NCBI GenBank assembly: GCA_949295025.1
Contig: CASFJK010000002.1
Location: 21,372-85,371, forward strand
Direction of reading: 5' to 3'
Length of the DNA: 64,000 nucleotides
DNA from: an uncultured Pseudomonadota bacterium
GTDB lineage: Bacteria > Pseudomonadota > Alphaproteobacteria > RF32 > CAG-239
Shown here: one piece after another, positions 20,768 through 31,118 of the stretch
Layout of the letters: each line of letters opens with the position of its first letter
Numbering within the stretch: position 1 is the stretch's first letter
Notes under the pieces: generated by a model
The model's database searches: none
What the model saw: only the letters and a program-made list of their open reading frames with translations
Told to the model about the DNA's origin: nothing
Made by a program: the position numbers and the translations under genes

Positions 20768-20805
20768 TTTATAAAAAGGGCTTTCTTATGAAAGCCTTTT
20801 TTTAT
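20768..20805 (+). terminator. Rho-independent terminator
   Basis: Hairpin aaagggctttc-tta-tgaaagccttt followed by TTTTTT. Confidence 0.6.
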
Positions 20806-21700
20806 GCTTGTATATTTGTTTTTTTATGCTATTTTGTCTCTTACATTTTTATTTTTTGATGAATTATTAACAAAAAAATTTATGGAAAAAAACATTATTA
20901 TTAGCAAAATGCTTGAAAAAGAAGTCTATGACATTAAGAGTTGTACTAAAACTTCTAATGAAACATGTCGTTTGGTTTTGCAAAAACAAGGCACAAAAAT
21001 GGTTCGAGATGGATTGTCTTATCTTCAAGTTTCTTCTCTGATGAAAAAAAATAATTTTTTTTGGGGAATCTTGTATGGAAAAAAATATGCATCAGAATAT
21101 GTGGTTCATGTTTTTCCTTATTATGATTCCGGCTGGAAAAGATTTGTCTGGAGTGAAAAAATTGATGAGAATCTCTTGTGTCAGCATAAAGAAATTCCAT
21201 ATAAATTAAGTAAATTCTTAAATTTATATGAGAAAATGCAAACTTTGTTTGTCAAAGGATTGAAATCTTGTTTGCAAAATTATCCTAACGCAGAGAGTTG
21301 CACTTTGTCTCCTGTGTTGGATCTTTATTGGGCTGAATTTCTGTGCTTGTATTTTGACAAAACCAGAGCTTTGAATAGGCTAAGAGTTCTACTTCAAGCA
21401 ATTTCCAAAGATACGCGTATTTTGAATAATGCTAATAAGCCGCTGAGTATAGAGAAATATCTTTGTATGTCTCAGTATATTGATAATGAAAAATGTGATT
21501 ATGAAGTACTTGCTCAAACTTATATAAAGAGCATTTATGAATATTTGCTTTTTTGTTATCAAGCAGATTTGTCTTCTTTAACAGATATCTACGGAACAAA
21601 AGAAAATATTGGTGAGTTTGTCAGTATAGAACATTATAAAAACTATTTGCTTCTATTTGACGCTGTAGATGAGGTTATTGCGTATTTGGATTTTGACTAA
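20804..21700 (+). CDS. Hypothetical protein
   Basis: 298-aa AT-rich ORF with a hydrophobic N-terminus. An alternative start MEKNIII lies at 20882. Confidence 0.45.
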   Translation: MLVYLFFYAILSLTFLFFDELLTKKFMEKNIIISKMLEKEVYDIKSCTKTSNETCRLVLQKQGTKMVRDGLSYLQVSSLMKKNNFFWGILYGKKYASEYVVHVFPYYDSGWKRFVWSEKIDENLLCQHKEIPYKLSKFLNLYEKMQTLFVKGLKSCLQNYPNAESCTLSPVLDLYWAEFLCLYFDKTRALNRLRVLLQAISKDTRILNNANKPLSIEKYLCMSQYIDNEKCDYEVLAQTYIKSIYEYLLFCYQADLSSLTDIYGTKENIGEFVSIEHYKNYLLLFDAVDEVIAYLDFD

Positions 21701-21729: not shown

Positions 21730-21945
21730 TCAAACCTGCTTTTCTTTTTTTAAATATTTCAGAATATATATTCGAATTGCACTTGATAGATTTTCATGTT
21801 CACGTTTTGAATCAATTTCTGTTACCAGTTGATTGATTGTTTGAAATTTTTCTTTGGCAATTGCTTGCAGCTCTTGCCAAAATTCGTCTTCAAGAGAGAT
21901 ACTGGTTTGATGTCTTCCGGCAATGATAACAGAGATTTTTTTCAT
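21730..21945 (-). CDS. Ribbon-helix-helix (RHH_4-type) small protein
   Basis: 71 aa with GRHQTSISLEDEFWQELQAIA...LVTEID...NLSSAIRIYIL, the conserved pattern of the alphaproteobacterial RHH_4 family. Confidence 0.6.
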   Translation of the reverse strand: MKKISVIIAGRHQTSISLEDEFWQELQAIAKEKFQTINQLVTEIDSKREHENLSSAIRIYILKYLKKEKQV

Positions 21946-22419
21946 TTATTTCTTTTTTCTAAAAGCATCAATAGAAACAACAGTTGCGGAACCAGAAACT
22001 TTTTTCTCTTTTTCTTCTTCAGGAGCGGAGATGGGTTCATTAGCAGAATCTGTTTCTTCTCCGGTTGTAAAACTCAAACCAAATTTTGCATAAGGGTCGG
22101 CAAAGTATGTGACTGCTTCAAAAGGGATAACCAATGTTTGTTGAATACCGCCAAAACTCAAATCTACGGAAAATAAGTTTGGTTCTACTTTTAAGTTATA
22201 AAATTGGTGTTGCAAAACGATAGTCATTTCTTCTGGATATTGATTTTTAAGATATTCAGAAATTTTGCAGTTGGGATGATTGGTTTTGAAGGTGATATAA
22301 AAATGGTTTTCTCCTGGTAAACCTTGTCTTTCAGCAATTTTAAGAGCTTCAATAACAACATTTTTCAATGATTTTTCAATTAGTTTATCATAATTTATTT
22401 CGGTTAAAAATTCTTCCAT
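21946..22419 (-). CDS. sspB: ClpXP adaptor SspB (stringent starvation protein B family)
   Basis: Core TIVLQHQFYNLKVEPNLFSVDLSFGGIQQTLVIPFEAVTYFADPYAKFGLSF aligns to the SspB substrate-binding domain. Acidic linker plus ...VVSIDAFRKKK forms a ClpX-binding-like tail. Start MEEFLTE has an RBS; the track ORF ran on to 22476 into the ssrA terminator. Confidence 0.65.
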   Translation of the reverse strand: MEEFLTEINYDKLIEKSLKNVVIEALKIAERQGLPGENHFYITFKTNHPNCKISEYLKNQYPEEMTIVLQHQFYNLKVEPNLFSVDLSFGGIQQTLVIPFEAVTYFADPYAKFGLSFTTGEETDSANEPISAPEEEKEKKVSGSATVVSIDAFRKKK

Positions 22420-22436
22420 TTTTTTACACCTTAAAT

Positions 22437-22762
22437 TTGTTATAGAAAAGGGCCGTTCTGTTGCTGGGTGGCCCATACCCCACTTTCAACTATCCAGAGT
22501 TAAAAGAATTTGAATTTGTTGCGACTACAAATTAAGCAGCCATTGCAACAGGAGCTACGTTATTATCGTTAGCATTCATTTAGTTTGAACCGATAACGGT
22601 GGTATCTCACCGGGTACGACATACATATCTTTACTGTTCCCAATCAAGCCTGTTTCACCCCCAAAGTTTGTAAGCTTAATTTGGTGGAGGTGCCGGGTAC
22701 CGCCCCCGGGTCTTGAAAACCTATTTCATACAGCCTCTAGTACCATAGCTGAAAAACTCAGC
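22437..22762 (-). ncRNA. ssrA: tmRNA (ssrA), permuted two-piece type
   Basis: The minus strand encodes the tag reading frame GCT AAC GAT AAT AAC GTA GCT CCT GTT GCA ATG GCT GCT TAA, giving ANDNNVAPVAMAA*. The upstream acceptor piece ends ...CACCUCC-ACCA at 22682. After a short loop, the coding piece begins GGGGGUG at 22662, giving an acceptor stem with a G3:U70 pair (Ala identity). A sigma70-like promoter TTGCAA-17-TATATT lies at 22770-22798 on the minus strand. Confidence 0.65.
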
Positions 22763-22769
22763 AAGTCAT

Positions 22770-22798
22770 AATATAGGTGATATTTGGCTACTTTGCAA
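22770..22798 (-). promoter_or_regulatory. Putative sigma70 promoter of ssrA
   Basis: The minus strand reads TTGCAA, then a 17-nt spacer, then TATATT, about 7 nt before the predicted acceptor-piece 5' end. Confidence 0.4.
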
Positions 22799-23752
22799 GC
22801 CTTATCTTTCTTGACAAAACAATATTTAATGATATATTTTTTAACAATTAATTTATTATTCATTTTAAATATTATAATTATGGAAAGAGAAAAAATGATT
22901 GACAGTCTTGGCAACCAAGAACAGGTTCTTTTTTGGTTTGCCAGTAAGTATGATATCAAGCATGTTTCCAAATTGCTGGCTGACGGTTATACTTTGACAA
23001 TAGATGTGCTGGAAGTGCTGTATTTTCTGGGTTATTCTTCTGAACAGATTCTGGATTGTATTAAATCTTGCAAATATTATATTGATGCTAAACTTTTGTT
23101 TGATTGGTTATGCGGCTTTATTGGGCAAGAAAAAACAGAGGCATTTATTATCGCAGAATTTGAATATGATCCTGATTTGTTTCAATATTTTTCATTAGAA
23201 AGTTTGGAAAAGCATAAATGTTGGGATGAATTGGCTTGTCGTAAAGCTGATGACATTTTGTTTAAGCACGGGGTTTATGATAAAATGACGCCGGAAGGTT
23301 TGTATAAACACCAATTGTTTGATGAATATTTTAAGAAGTATGGACATATTAATCCTGAGGATAATGCTGCACTTGATTATTTGGCAGAAAAAGGCTTGTG
23401 GAATATTGTTCAAGCAAACTACAATATACTTAGAAATACGACCAATCAAAAGCTGCTTGATTTTTTGGTGAAGCATAAAAAGTTTGAAATGATTGCCACA
23501 CAAAATGTGATGTATTTGACCAAATTTCCTGAAGGAATTGAGTATTTACAGAAAAATAAACGCTATTATGTTCTGGCGGAAGCCAAACTTTGGGATAAAA
23601 TCGATTGGGACGAGTATTTGCAATCGGGAACAATCAAACCGATGAGAGATGCAGAAACCGCTCAGCAATGGGATGCATTGATGCGTGGTCACCGACATCT
23701 GGTGCTTTTAAAGCATTTCAAGCTTTGGCGTTTTGTTAAATCTTTTTTCTAA
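22784..23752 (+). CDS. Hypothetical protein (AT-rich, lineage-specific)
   Basis: 322-aa ORF. An alternative start MEREKMIDS lies at 22880. No recognised domain. Confidence 0.45.
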   Translation: MATLQALSFLTKQYLMIYFLTINLLFILNIIIMEREKMIDSLGNQEQVLFWFASKYDIKHVSKLLADGYTLTIDVLEVLYFLGYSSEQILDCIKSCKYYIDAKLLFDWLCGFIGQEKTEAFIIAEFEYDPDLFQYFSLESLEKHKCWDELACRKADDILFKHGVYDKMTPEGLYKHQLFDEYFKKYGHINPEDNAALDYLAEKGLWNIVQANYNILRNTTNQKLLDFLVKHKKFEMIATQNVMYLTKFPEGIEYLQKNKRYYVLAEAKLWDKIDWDEYLQSGTIKPMRDAETAQQWDALMRGHRHLVLLKHFKLWRFVKSFF

Positions 23753-23830: not shown

Positions 23831-24394
23831 ATGACTAAAGTTGCAATTTGGTGCCGCCATGCACAAGATAATTTGATTGCCGTCGGCAAAAATATTCCTT
23901 GGCAGATAAAGTCCGATTCTGAGTTTTTTATTCATGTTGTGGAAGGATGTAATGTGGTGATGGGGAGGTTGACTTATGAAGCATTACCGAATCGGACAAT
24001 TCCCAATTGCAAAATTTATGTTTTGACTTCGGATTACACTTATAAAGTTTCTGACAAAACGAATCATTTTGTTGTTGATGATGTGCGCTATTTTAAAGAA
24101 TTTCCCGAGGATTTGTACATCGCCGGAGGCGCTAAAGTATATGAATCTTTTCTTGCCGGAGGGGCAAAACTTTTACCTGATATTGTGGTAGATTGTGTGT
24201 ATGACGGGGATATTTTGCCTAACCTAAAAGGGGAAAAAATTGACATATCTTCCTGCATGCCGATTTTAGATAAAAAATATATAAAAGTTGCAGAAAATCA
24301 AGAGGATGGAGTGTCTAGACGCATGCTTATAAAACGTGGAGATTTTGTTGATCAGACGGTTATGAAAAAAATTTTAACACTGATGCAAAAATAG
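23831..24394 (+). CDS. folA: Dihydrofolate reductase-like protein
   Basis: LIAVGKNIPWQIKSDSEFFIHVVEGCNVVMGRLTYEALPNR...IYVLTSD and IAGGAKVYESFL match the DHFR fold motifs. RBS aaggag. Confidence 0.65.
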   Translation: MTKVAIWCRHAQDNLIAVGKNIPWQIKSDSEFFIHVVEGCNVVMGRLTYEALPNRTIPNCKIYVLTSDYTYKVSDKTNHFVVDDVRYFKEFPEDLYIAGGAKVYESFLAGGAKLLPDIVVDCVYDGDILPNLKGEKIDISSCMPILDKKYIKVAENQEDGVSRRMLIKRGDFVDQTVMKKILTLMQK

Positions 24395-24481
24395 GTCTTG
24401 ACTTTATCTGAAATCTGAATATTATGCCGACTTCGTTCAGAAATTAAAATCACGTAATTAAAGTATTTTTAAGAGAGCATT

Positions 24482-25120
24482 ATGAAAGTGCAATATCATA
24501 AATTTTGCCTGAACACACAGGTGGAACAGGCGGTGTTGTGCGCTGAGGATAGCAAAAAACTCAGCTCTCTTTCTATACAAGATTTGGTGCTGCTAAAAGC
24601 AGAATTGTTTGGAATGTATAATTTGAGTAATGATGAATTTATAGATTTTTTAAATGCTCCAAATCGAAAAAAGATTCGTGATATTTCAGAAATGAGTGAA
24701 GATGAAAAACGTGTTGCAAAAGCTTTGGTTCGTTTGAATATTCATGCACGCAGAAGAATGTTGAAAATTGCTTCAGATTTTCGTCAAAAAAAGCCTTCTG
24801 CCAGTGCACAAGAAATTCATGATTTGGCTTTTGTTTTTAGAAATAATGGTAAGGATTTTGTTCCTTTTCCAGAGATAAAACAAATGAATGCATATGTGGC
24901 ATGGTATCATCATCAAAAACTTATTTCTTTGAAAAAGTCTGTTTGGAAAAAGTTTTTGGTAAGAAAATTCGATAAAGCCCTGAATTCTGCCAAAGCAGTG
25001 TTAGACAACTGTTTTTCAGGGCTCGAATACTGGCTTGATGATAGCCGTTCTCAATCATCAGGATCAGTAACTCTTCATAGAGTGGAAAATATTAAGCATC
25101 GCTTAGAGAGAACACACTAA
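24482..25120 (+). CDS. Hypothetical protein
   Basis: 212 aa, basic, with no recognised domain. Confidence 0.45.
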   Translation: MKVQYHKFCLNTQVEQAVLCAEDSKKLSSLSIQDLVLLKAELFGMYNLSNDEFIDFLNAPNRKKIRDISEMSEDEKRVAKALVRLNIHARRRMLKIASDFRQKKPSASAQEIHDLAFVFRNNGKDFVPFPEIKQMNAYVAWYHHQKLISLKKSVWKKFLVRKFDKALNSAKAVLDNCFSGLEYWLDDSRSQSSGSVTLHRVENIKHRLERTH

Positions 25121-25193
25121 TTTTTTAATATAAAGTTATAAACTCCAAGAATAAAACCCCTAAGAAGCAATTCTCAGGGGTTTTATTTTTTTC

Positions 25194-25844
25194 TTAAGCA
25201 GCTTGTTTTTCTTCTAATCCATACGGAATATCATCAAACAAAATTGGAATTTGCTTGCGGAATTCTTTTAGCAACATGAGCATGATATGTTGAACGCTCG
25301 GATGAGCAGCTGGGGCGCAACGGAGTTTGAATATGTGGCGCCACTCTCTGATATTGGCTGTCATAATTACATCGGCCTTGGTAGAGTGGGGAAGCAACAT
25401 TCTCAATTGGTCAGCTTTGGCGCCTTTTTCAGCCATTTCCAGATATGATTTTTCAATCATTTCCATGGTTTTATACCAAATATTATAAATTTCGGAGCCT
25501 TCTTCCATATTACTTGGTTTCATAAAAGTTAGCTCGTTGCCGTATTTGCCTTTGGAATAGTTGCAGAAGCGGGTGCTTTCTATGGCAAAACTAGCCATGC
25601 GGTGACGAGTTAAGTCTTTGTATGCACCAACGTCTGTGGTTAATTTGACTGTGATTGCAAAGTGCTCAATCATAGCTTCATGTCCCATTTCCAGAAGCTT
25701 TTTTATCATTGTTTTTGCAGAATCTGTTGTGATTTTGTCTTCACTTTTATAGCAATTGCGTGCGCAAAGCTCTAAATGCTTCAAAATATAGTCGCCATCA
25801 ATTGGGGTGATGATTTCGATGCTCGGTTCTACAATTTTTACCAT
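25194..25844 (-). CDS. thyX: Flavin-dependent thymidylate synthase
   Basis: ThyX signature RHRMASFAIESTR (RHRxxSxxxxSxR) in a 216-aa protein. Confidence 0.85.
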   Translation of the reverse strand: MVKIVEPSIEIITPIDGDYILKHLELCARNCYKSEDKITTDSAKTMIKKLLEMGHEAMIEHFAITVKLTTDVGAYKDLTRHRMASFAIESTRFCNYSKGKYGNELTFMKPSNMEEGSEIYNIWYKTMEMIEKSYLEMAEKGAKADQLRMLLPHSTKADVIMTANIREWRHIFKLRCAPAAHPSVQHIMLMLLKEFRKQIPILFDDIPYGLEEKQAA

Positions 25845-25908
25845 TGTTCTTGTTCCTCTTGCAAAAAAAATTATTTCTTTTACATTACAAGAAAAAAAGG
25901 AGATTTGT

Positions 25909-26376
25909 ATGATTAATTATATTTATACACCAATAAAGTTTGTAAAGCTTTCTCACTATGTTGAAAATGAAAATAATTTGACATATTCAACAGATGGGGC
26001 TGCTTGTTTTGATATTTGTGCCGCACTTTCTGAGCCATATGTATTGAAAGCAGGGGAAAGATATGGTTTCCCGACAGCTATTAAGACTGCACCGGAATTT
26101 CCTTTGTGGTTTAGAGTTAACTCACGCAGCGGTTTGGCTCTAAAACAAGGAATTTTTGCTATCGGTGGTATTATTGATACAGATTATCGAGGAGAGTGGA
26201 AGATTATTCTTGTGAATTGCGGTAAAGAAGATTATGTCGTTAATCCTGGTGATAAGATAGCACAAGTTGAGCTGCCTTTTCCGTATCGAGCAAAGTTTGA
26301 AGAAGTATCCGAAACAGATTTTGCTTCTTTGCAAACAAATCGTGGTGAGGGTGGTTTTGGTTCAAGTGGAAGATAG
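25909..26376 (+). CDS. dut: dUTP diphosphatase
   Basis: dUTPase motifs (AACFDICA, SRSGLALK, GIIDTDYRGE, GGFGSSG). Start ATG at 25909 has RBS aaggag; the track ORF begins further upstream at 25807. Confidence 0.85.
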   Translation: MINYIYTPIKFVKLSHYVENENNLTYSTDGAACFDICAALSEPYVLKAGERYGFPTAIKTAPEFPLWFRVNSRSGLALKQGIFAIGGIIDTDYRGEWKIILVNCGKEDYVVNPGDKIAQVELPFPYRAKFEEVSETDFASLQTNRGEGGFGSSGR

Positions 26377-28481: not shown

Positions 28482-31118
28482 TTAAATCGCTTTTTTAATG
28501 GCATCAATTGCTGCAGCGGTTTTGCTACCATCCGGACCACCTGCTTGAGCCATATCCGGACGTCCGCCACCACCTTGACCGCCAACTTGTGCAGATCCTA
28601 AGCGAACCAAATCAACAGCTGAATATTTTCCGACCAAATCATTGGTTACACCAACAACGATAGAGGCCTTACCCTCGTTGTTAGCTGCCAAAACAATTAC
28701 ACCGGAACCAATATTGCCTTTGATTTCATCAACAAAAGCTTTCAATTCTTTAGCTTGAACATCTTGCAAGTCTTTACCAACGAATTTAATGCCATTGATT
28801 TCTTCAAACTCGTTATTGTTGCCACTGGCTTTATTGCTTACAAGAGCTTTCTTCAAGTTGAAGATTTCGGCTTCTTGTTTTTTCTTTTCTTCTTGAAGTT
28901 GAGTAATCTTACCTTCAATGTTTGCCATATCAGATTTGAGCATAGCGGCAATATGGTGCAAGCGTTGCTCATTTTCCAAAGCATATTGTTCGGCACCGCG
29001 ACCGGTCAAGCATTCAACACGGCGCAAACCTGCACCGATTGCTGATTCGGCAATGATTTTGAAGAAGCCGATATCACCAGTGGATTTAACGTGTGTACCA
29101 CCGCAAAGCTCTGTTGAAAGAAAATGCTCGTTATCATTATCACAAACAGAAACAACACGAACTTCATCACCGTATTTTTCACCGAACAAAGCCATAGCGC
29201 CTTCTTTGATAGCATCTTCTTGACGCATGATGCGGGTGATGACAGGGTGGTTTTCTCTGATGATGTCATTTACTCTTTCTTCAGCCAAACGAAGCTCAGC
29301 ATCAGAAATTTGTTTATGGTGAGAAATATCAAAACGCATTCTGTCGGCAGCGACATAAGAACCTTTTTGAGTAACGTGTGTACCCAAAATGTCACGCAAT
29401 ACTTTGTGTAAGATATGGGTCACAGTGTGGTTTGCAGCAATGGCAGCACGATTTTTTGTATCAACTTCAAAAGTCAAATCATCACCGACTTTAACCGTAC
29501 CTTTAATCATTTTGCAAACGTGAACAGTGAGCTCGTGAAGTTTTTTCTTAGTATCCAAAACTTCAATTTCGCAATTTGGGCCATAGATTTTACCAATATC
29601 ACCAACTTGACCTCCCATTTCGCCATAGAACGGAGTTTGGTTGGCAACGAGGTAAAATTCGCCATTATTTACGGTTTCAACTTCTTTACCATCAACAACC
29701 AAGTTGTTTACCAAGCATTCTGATTTTAAGGTGTTGTAACCCAAAAATTCGGTACCGCCGTTTTTATCAAAAATTTCGAACCAAACTTTTTCTGTTCCGG
29801 CATCACCAGAACCGGCCCAGTTCTTACGAGCTTCGGCTTTTTGTTTAGCCATGGCTTCATCAAAACCTTTGACATCAACTTTCATGTCTTTGTTTCTCAA
29901 AGCATCTTGAGTTAAGTCAAGCGGGAAGCCATAGGTATCATAAAGTTTGAATGCGGTTGTACCAGATAATTCATCACCGGCTTTCAAATCTTTGGTCTCA
30001 TCTTCCAATAAACGCATACCTTTATCTAAGGTTTTTAAGAAGCGCAATTCTTCAGCCTTGATGGTCTCGGTAATGAGTTCTTGAGCGCGATACAATTCAG
30101 GATAAGCTTCGCCCATTTCTTTTTGCAAAGCAGGCAAGAGTTTATACATCATCGGTTCTTTCATGCCGAGCAAATATTGGTGACGCATTGCTCTTCTCAT
30201 AATACGGCGCAAAACATAACCACGACCTTCGTTTGAAGGCATAACACCATCAGCAATCAAGAAGCAGGTTGAACGCAAGTGGTCAGCAATGACGTTGTGA
30301 GATGCTTTCAAAGGACCGTTCGGATCAGAGTTTGCCATATCAGCAATGGCTTTGATTAAGTTTTGGAATAAGTCAATCTCATAGTTGGAGTGAACGCCTT
30401 GTAAAATGGCTGAGATACGTTCCAAACCCATACCGGTATCAATTGACGGGTGTTTCAACGGAATACGAGAGCCATCCGGCAAGTCTTCAAATTGGTCAAA
30501 TACCAAGTTCCAGATTTCAATCCATCTATCACCGTCTTCTTCAGGTGTTCCCGGCAGGCCGCCCCAAACTTCCGGACCGTGGTCATAGAAGATTTCAGAG
30601 CAGGGGCCGCAAGGACCGGTGTCACCCATTTGCCAAAAGTTATCTTTGGTGGCAATACGGATGATTCTGTCTTCAGGCAAACCTGAAACTTTTTTCCAAA
30701 TATCGTGAGCTTCATCATCGGTATGGTAAACGGTAACAGCCAATCTGTCTTTAGGTAAGCAGAATTCTTTGGTTACCAATTCCCAAGCCCAAGCAATAGC
30801 TTCATCTTTAAAATAATCTCCGAAAGAGAAGTTGCCGAGCATTTCAAAAAATGTGTGGTGACGAACGGTGTATCCGACGTTGTCCAAGTCATTGTGTTTA
30901 CCGCCGGCACGAACTGATTTTTGGGAAGTGGTCGCTCGCTTGTAATCTCTGACTTCATTACCGGTAAAGATGTTCTTGAACTGAACCATACCGGAGTTGG
31001 TGAACATTAAGGTTGGGTCATTATCCGGCACCAAAGATGATGACGGAATAATCTTGTGACCATTCTTAGCAAAGAAATTTAAATATGTACTTCTAATATC
31101 TTTTAATGTTGTTGTCAT
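28482..31118 (-). CDS. alaS: Alanine--tRNA ligase
   Basis: 878 aa with class II AlaRS motifs, the editing domain HxxxH/CxxxH, and a C-terminal DHHA1-like GGGG region. Confidence 0.95.

Follow-up and report, generated by a model that had tools for sequence, protein, structure and literature searches.

In Escherichia coli, tmRNA is made in one piece and sspB is not linked to ssrA. The E. coli adaptor SspB, encoded in the sspAB operon, attaches to the N-terminal portion of the ssrA tag, tethering it to ClpX, and the gene found beside ssrA is that of the tmRNA partner protein SmpB (PMC3985003 and general knowledge). A two-piece tmRNA has been described from Caulobacter crescentus and other Alphaproteobacteria (Keiler, Shapiro & Williams 2000, as cited in PMC3985003). 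CC2102, a 162-residue protein of Caulobacter, is listed as a signature of nearly all Alphaproteobacteria (PMC1182365, PMC2241609). The Caulobacter SspB matches retrieved in the present analysis are of the same length. From this match in length, and as reportedly described by Lessner et al. 2007, we take CC2102 to be SspB-alpha. The position of sspB next to ssrA is said to have been noticed when SspB-alpha was discovered, in that same 2007 work. A statement that sspB adjoins ssrA in Alphaproteobacteria was not found in the accessible full-text literature.

The locus described here, on the minus strand of the window (the whole 64-kb stretch of DNA that was analysed), is a standard, functional-looking alphaproteobacterial two-piece tmRNA gene with sspB. 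With the two-piece tmRNA of Caulobacter and other Alphaproteobacteria it shares the permuted order, the G3:U70 pair, an encoded CCA and a terminal pseudoknot, and its tag likewise begins with ANDN and ends with a hydrophobic residue followed by Ala-Ala. It differs from them in its shorter intervening segment of 19 nt, with a 9-nt deletion in the Rfam alignment, and in the core of the tag, which is NVAPVAM here and FAEEFAV there. As in Caulobacter and Agrobacterium, sspB directly follows ssrA in the same orientation; the gap between the two genes, however, is 21-26 nt here and about 180-270 nt in those genera. The gene directly after sspB also differs, being a ribbon-helix-helix gene (RHH_4) here, a 4HBT thioesterase gene in Caulobacter, and a DUF4169 gene in Agrobacterium, where RHH_4 then follows 1.2 kb away. 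Unlike E. coli, the locus has sspB linked to ssrA and a two-piece tmRNA, and its SspB scores below the cut-offs of the gamma/beta NCBIfam equivalogs.

A permuted two-piece ssrA gene

A single tmRNA gene was detected in the window by ARAGORN, at 22441..22774 on the minus strand, with the permuted flag 'tmRNA*' and the tag ANDNNVAPVAMAA. The same region was matched by two Rfam families over the full length of their models: RF01849 (alpha_tmRNA) at 22446..22802 (model positions 1-355 of 355; 207.4 bits; E 1.5e-58) and RF04321 (tmRNA_permuted) at 22532..22744 (1-213 of 213; 142.2 bits). The gathering thresholds are 50 bits for RF01849 and 47 bits for RF04321, and since the former model scores 207 bits against 50, a chance match is not at issue. 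Rhizobiales or Caulobacter genes score 240-314 bits with RF01849; the lower score found here is attributed to the lineage being AT-rich (the GC content of the window is about 36%) and divergent. The first-pass annotation, made from the sequence alone, had read a permuted two-piece alphaproteobacterial ssrA at this place and had named ARAGORN and RF01849 as the means of checking it; both call a permuted tmRNA at the locus.

The permuted order can be read directly on the minus strand. The acceptor piece, GGUACUAG ... T-arm CCCGGGGGCGGUACCCGG ... CACCUCC-ACCA, occupies 22682..22744, from the start of the RF04321 match at 22744 to the encoded CCA end at 22682, its mature 5' boundary being approximate. 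Its 3' part, ending at 22682, reads GGCACCUCCACCA, and the terminal acceptor sequence is CACCUCCACCA. After the CCA, an intervening segment of exactly 19 nt, AAUUAAGCUUACAAACUUU (22663..22681, minus strand), leads to the coding piece (22446..22662, minus strand), which starts with GGGGGUG at 22662 and whose 3' end is placed only approximately, ARAGORN giving 22441 and Rfam 22446. By the precedent of Caulobacter, the segment between the pieces would be excised. GGGGGUG and CACCUCC form the seven pairs of an acceptor stem in which the third pair is G:U, giving G3:U70. Both the succession of acceptor piece, loop of roughly 19 nt and coding piece and the alanine identity pair had been claimed beforehand, and both were found as described.

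Upstream of the mature acceptor piece, a 5' leader hairpin, GCUGAGUUUUUCAGC (22748..22762, minus strand), is predicted by the consensus pairing of RF01849 and by single-sequence folding. A consensus scan found TTGCAA and TATATT separated by 17 nt (22770..22798, minus strand; 9/12), the putative ssrA promoter. The RF01849 model opens with a conserved CUU...UAUAUU block, and the site falls on it.

The tag frame lies at 22532..22573 on the minus strand (ARAGORN gene positions 202-243; the RF04321 match ends at 22532). It starts at the resume codon GCU at 22573, encodes ANDNNVAPVAMAA and closes with GCU GCU UAA, the stop occupying 22534-22532; ARAGORN and direct reading of the sequence agree on the minus-strand frame, ending in TAA, that had first been picked out from the sequence alone. 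Relatives were collected by a search for SspB loci in GTDB contigs with one genome per species, and the closest loci, at 64-89% identity, all belong to uncultured gut Alphaproteobacteria, including CAG:495, Candidatus Scatocola and HGM16780. Tags identical or nearly identical to it are found among relatives, whose tags end in MAA, VAA, IAA or LAA. Comparison with alphaproteobacterial tags, as had been proposed, gave a common ANDN start, and this start is invariant wherever SspB is linked to ssrA, in the clade loci and in loci outside the clade.

The 3' end of the gene forms a terminal pseudoknot (22450..22483, minus strand), in which helix 1 pairs 22482-22479 with 22468-22465 and helix 2 pairs GGGCC at 22474-22470 with GGCCC at 22454-22450; UUUU follows directly at 22449-22446. 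In an alignment of 64 distinct relatives, 96% of cells were paired and compensatory changes were present in 4 of the 5 helix-2 pairs, compared with 33-62% paired in slid controls; this comparative test covers the terminal pseudoknot only. Judged by this covariation, the last helix of the tmRNA is real.

Spacing and possible co-transcription of ssrA and sspB

The longest sspB open reading frame in the program-made list starts at an ATG at 22476, within the terminal pseudoknot, so that the earlier observation of an sspB start running into the 3' structure of ssrA was correct. This long start was rejected as an artefact: relatives conserve a start position equal to 22419 (MEEF.../M..E..) and mostly lack the upstream extension. 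Several public SspB homologues are annotated at 176-186 aa, compared with the usual 156-161 aa, and show the same over-extended start error. A Shine-Dalgarno-like AAGGUG stands 7 nt before the start at 22419 (22427..22432, minus strand), where relatives have a purine-rich block. Between the 3' end of the tmRNA and this ATG lie 21 nt (ARAGORN end) or 26 nt (Rfam end), in place of the 17 nt given in the first-pass annotation, the one statement about the sequence there that needed correction. In all clade loci the last tmRNA helix is separated from the sspB ATG by only about 20-45 nt, which contain little beyond the purine-rich, Shine-Dalgarno-like block. On the other side of sspB, the ATG of the 71-residue RHH_4 gene (21730..21945, minus strand; PF13467, 77.5 bits) abuts the sspB stop (TAA-ATG), and RHH_4 directly follows sspB in 80 of the 80 clade loci.

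The spacer is too tight to hold a promoter of its own for sspB, which suggests that in the clade transcription started at the ssrA promoter reads through into sspB and RHH_4. No conserved promoter was found between the tag stop and sspB across the clade relatives. Two candidates in this interval, TTGAAA..CAGCAA and ..TATAAC, were discarded as poor matches that are unconserved in relatives. We tentatively propose, as a reading close to evenly poised, that ssrA, sspB and RHH_4 form one transcription unit. The adaptor mRNA would then be a 3' extension of pre-tmRNA, freed by the processing of the tmRNA 3' end, the production of tag writer and tag reader would be physically coupled, and the RHH_4 product could serve the unit as its DNA-binding regulator.

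A possible, though rather doubtful, alternative is that sspB is expressed independently. Transcription of ssrA would then terminate at the last helix and its U-run, a promoter lying within the 3' portion of ssrA would serve sspB and RHH_4, and the adjacency of the genes would be an inherited order with no regulatory coupling. The last helix with its UUUU in the window (GGGCC...GGCCC, then UUUU), and with longer U-runs in most relatives (a GC-rich helix followed by T5-7), could act as an intrinsic terminator, which would speak against co-transcription. However, the U-tract after the helix is absent in six relatives (L005, L006, L028, L029, L067 and L077), and a helix that is half of a pseudoknot and has a 15-nt loop would be an atypical intrinsic terminator. 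A terminator scan of the region reported none at the tmRNA 3' end; because the 15-nt loop and the pseudoknot membership of the helix place it outside the rule of that scan, the alignment was relied on instead.

The promoter that independent expression calls for could be sought in TTCAAA-16-GATAAT, a weak promoter-like site found by consensus scan inside ssrA at 22589..22562. This site matches at only 9/12 and lies within sequence conserved for tmRNA function, in a region where promoter-like sites are at chance level: 11 were observed and 6.4 +/- 2.8 expected, so that such matches weigh little for or against either reading. The gap of 178-269 nt in Caulobacter and Agrobacterium is ample for a separate promoter and also favours independent expression.

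The alpha-type SspB protein

The sspB gene (21946..22419, minus strand) encodes a protein of 157 aa that matches PF04386 over residues 14-139 at 135.3 bits (cut-off 27). The closest solved structures are those of Agrobacterium AGR_C_3712p (2nys, E 7.9e-29) and of the Caulobacter protein, 2qas (E 6.5e-26) and 2qaz (E 5.7e-23), the last deposited as SspB. The claim that the adjacent open reading frame encodes an SspB-type adaptor is supported by this Pfam score and by these nearest structures. In a three-way alignment with Caulobacter SspB-alpha (2QAS/2QAZ) and Agrobacterium tumefaciens AGR_C_3712p (2NYS), which carry the same Pfam domain, the body of the protein is 41-47% identical. The three proteins also share an acidic linker, here a stretch rich in E, K, S and P at residues ~118-145, and a C-terminal tail of the form VVS(L/I)DAFRKK. 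The tail in the window, VVSIDAFRKKK, aligns with VVSLDAFRKK of the Agrobacterium protein, and a profile built from 30 diverse members of the family has a consensus ending in VVxLDxFRKK. This C-terminal tail of SspB-alpha is reported to bind the N-domain of ClpX.

It is highly unlikely that this protein of SspB fold is something other than a tmRNA-tag adaptor, with other cargo or another role. The observation that could be read in that sense is that the NCBIfam equivalogs for the gamma/beta ClpXP specificity-enhancing factor, NF008769 and NF008770, score the product at 16.6 and 15.8 bits, far below their cut-offs of 135 and 198 bits. For this reason the protein is not filed under the gamma/beta branch; however, low scores with these models are expected for an alpha-type SspB. 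The closest solved relatives include a Caulobacter protein deposited under the same name, the ClpX-tethering tail is conserved, and the ANDN start of the tag does not vary wherever the protein is linked to ssrA, all of which argue for an adaptor.

Gene order in relatives and genomic context

In 79 of the 80 clade loci sspB is closely preceded by a permuted tmRNA gene, called by ARAGORN in 54 of them and by Rfam in 25 more; the 80th contig begins at sspB and has no upstream sequence. The apparent absence of tmRNA from 25 of the 80 relatives, and from one Caulobacter-like contig, was set aside as a failure of ARAGORN, all of these genes having been recovered by Rfam. The genes that ARAGORN missed are mostly those with long intervening segments.

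Outside the clade, SspB homologues were retrieved with a three-sequence profile and a 30-sequence profile, and their contigs were then scanned. Permuted tmRNA genes were found upstream of sspB on the Caulobacter contigs L081, L082 and L086, with the tag ANDNFAEEFAVAA, and on the Agrobacterium contigs L084 and L085, with the tag ANDNNAKEYALAA. On these contigs, and on L088-L091 from diverse Alphaproteobacteria, the tmRNA precedes sspB on the same strand by 79-269 nt; on L087, from a further diverse alphaproteobacterium, two genes are inserted between them. The flanks recur as well, with thyX or folA/thyA upstream and RHH_4 and/or fumarase downstream, including at loci outside the clade. Because this arrangement recurs in the clade and in the Caulobacter, Agrobacterium and diverse loci with shared flanks, the ssrA-sspB order is, on these comparative grounds, ancestral alphaproteobacterial synteny. 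The first-pass annotation had called the close linkage of the two genes noteworthy. The linkage itself stands, as the clade loci show, but it is not noteworthy, being conserved across the alphaproteobacterial loci sampled.

The neighbours of the locus in the window are housekeeping genes: folA, thyX, dut, alaS, mnmA, a gene for a serine acetyltransferase-like hexapeptide transferase, def, nusB and nrdR. Three flanking open reading frames, at 20804-21700, 22880-23752 and 24482-25120, have no Pfam match, and SmpB was not found among the window open reading frames scanned. The surroundings of the locus show no sign of a prophage or island.

tmRNA genes are frequent integration sites of islands, and some phages carry a tmRNA. 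That background and the three flanking open reading frames without a Pfam match could be counted for a decayed, horizontally acquired or phage- or island-borne copy in place of a working chromosomal ssrA, but such a copy is hardly credible given the full-length Rfam match, the intact resume codon, tag and stop, the encoded CCA and the G3:U70 pair, the same placement in 79 related genomes with a covarying terminal helix, and the housekeeping flanks (thyX, folA, dut, alaS, mnmA and cysE) in a synteny common to distant Alphaproteobacteria.

Hairpin repeats in the intervening segments of relatives

The intervening segment, 19 nt in the window, ranges from 5 to ~850 nt in relatives. Long segments contain 1-7 tandem copies of a unit of 120-132 nt, each of which folds as a long imperfect hairpin (z-scores -3.6 to -7.1) with the apex GGAGTGTACA-N5-GTACATGAC. 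RNAalifold, applied to 64 copies of the repeat, recovered the invariant apex alone, because the stems vary in length and align poorly. In the window, a search for the apex with up to 3 mismatches found no copy.

The same apex is present in more than 120 metagenome contigs, where copies lie in ordinary intergenic DNA, several of them beside tRNA genes or within the 16S-23S spacer. The repeats matched no family in an E-value search of Rfam. Comparison of the tmRNA pieces of the window with the metagenome hairpin loci gave nothing by nhmmer or blastn, and ARAGORN, a program that misses genes with long intervening segments, found no tmRNA on the 60 metagenome hairpin loci, out of 80, to which it was applied. 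By analogy with the Rickettsia palindromic elements, the units may belong to a dispersed family of palindromic repeats that excised spacers tolerate. A 'repetitive element' has been noted in the intervening sequence of the tmRNA of HGM16780 (a GTDB genus), the longest tmRNA gene known (PMC11915505).

Discussion

We are highly confident that the locus is the chromosomal permuted ssrA of a low-GC gut alphaproteobacterium, accompanied by an alpha-type SspB in inherited synteny, and that transcription from the ssrA promoter most likely reads through into sspB and RHH_4. Nothing found contradicts the gene identities, and the anatomy, conservation and synteny of the locus are read directly from the DNA and its relatives.

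For the working of the locus, we infer processing of the precursor, alanylation, tagging and delivery to ClpXP from the Caulobacter and E. coli systems (PMC3985003 and general knowledge). One precursor would be transcribed from the TTGCAA-17-TATATT promoter, and tRNA-processing enzymes would cut out the 19 nt that separate the acceptor-piece CCA from G1 of the coding piece. Both pieces would remain base-paired and make up a tRNA-Ala-like domain, with G3:U70 providing the identity recognised by AlaRS, and the coding piece would give the tag ANDNNVAPVAMAA to stalled ribosomes. The body of SspB would then bind the conserved N-terminal ANDN of the tag, while its VVSIDAFRKKK tail would tether the cargo to ClpX, in an SspB-assisted delivery to ClpXP like that of the E. 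coli adaptor. Co-transcription of sspB with ssrA is likewise something that we infer, in this case from the layout of the genes.

For trans-translation, these findings are nothing biologically new, as both the two-piece tmRNA and SspB-alpha are established. What they provide for an uncultured gut alphaproteobacterial lineage is a fixed ssrA gene, with its two pieces and its tag. They also correct the start codon of sspB, a gene whose start is often pushed into the tmRNA by gene callers. The very short spacer of the clade is mildly unusual and gives rise to a modest, testable hypothesis of co-transcription; if true, the reading of the genes as a single unit would physically couple the output of the tag writer to that of the tag reader.

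Conservation of an ssrA-sspB-RHH_4 unit

In the window, the permuted two-piece tmRNA gene ssrA (22446-22802, minus strand) was followed by the SspB adaptor gene sspB (21946-22419, minus strand) and then by a gene for a 71-aa ribbon-helix-helix protein (21730-21945, minus strand; PF13467, RHH_4), the start codon of which abutted the sspB stop codon (TAA-ATG). sspB was directly followed by RHH_4 in all 80 related gut alphaproteobacterial loci, and RHH_4 was also found downstream of sspB, at a distance of 1-2 kb, in Agrobacterium and one alphaproteobacterial genome outside this clade, represented by the 3.7-Mb contig L087. Among the loci sampled, direct ssrA-sspB adjacency was interrupted only in L087, by inserted Metal_hydrol and Peptidase_M19 genes (L087:472-3001). 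In one public SspB homologue (P0047, 201 aa), SspB and RHH_4 domains were found within a single predicted protein. The RHH_4 protein may be a regulator of the ssrA-sspB-RHH_4 unit.

The first-pass annotation had noted that the ORF-track start of sspB runs into the 3' hairpin of ssrA. This was confirmed by the longest ORF in the window (21946-22476, minus strand; 176 aa). The sspB start is over-extended by gene callers into the tmRNA 3' pseudoknot. Several public homologues (those listed being P0004, P0042, P0046, P0049, P0089 and P0094) were annotated at 179-186 aa, compared with 156-161 aa for the majority.

Examination of the surrounding genes identified folA (DHFR), thyX and dut as near upstream neighbours of ssrA, and alaS, whose product charges tmRNA, at a distance of 6 kb (window 23831-26376 and 28482-31118). 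In distant Alphaproteobacteria (L084 and L085, both Agrobacterium, and L089 and L090), thyX or folA-thyA was found on the matching side of ssrA. Three plus-strand ORFs of 212-298 aa flanking the unit (20804-21700, 22880-23752 and 24482-25120) had no match in a Pfam search.

Tandem hairpin units in the tmRNA intervening segment

The segment between the acceptor and coding pieces of the permuted tmRNA gene, which is predicted to be excised, was 19 nt long in the window (22663-22681) and ranged from 5 nt to approximately 850 nt in the 80 clade loci, where it lay just upstream of position ~2760 of each locus (e.g., L040:1905-2757, L019:2187-2761, L041:2250-2747 and L043:2757-2761). Long segments consisted of 1-7 tandem units of 120-132 nt, in every case on the tmRNA strand, and each unit was predicted by folding to form a long imperfect hairpin. 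A "repetitive element" of this kind is mentioned only briefly in PMC11915505.

A dispersed hairpin repeat family

A dispersed hairpin repeat family was present in more than 120 metagenome contigs (L092-L171 among the loci analysed; e.g., L136:461-1065, L096:801, L122:715, L131:4606, L141:5977 and L107:5833-6092); a search of the window found no copy. All copies shared the invariant apex GGAGTGTACA-N5-GTACATGAC, in which GA/GA borders a helix of 6 bp; the stems were variable and base-paired. An Rfam search of the repeat at E<=1 matched no families. In the metagenome contigs the majority of copies lay in ordinary intergenic DNA, and some flanked tRNA-Ile/Ala within the 16S-23S spacer or adjoined other tRNAs. 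The family may be an RNA element or a DNA (MITE/REPIN-like) element.
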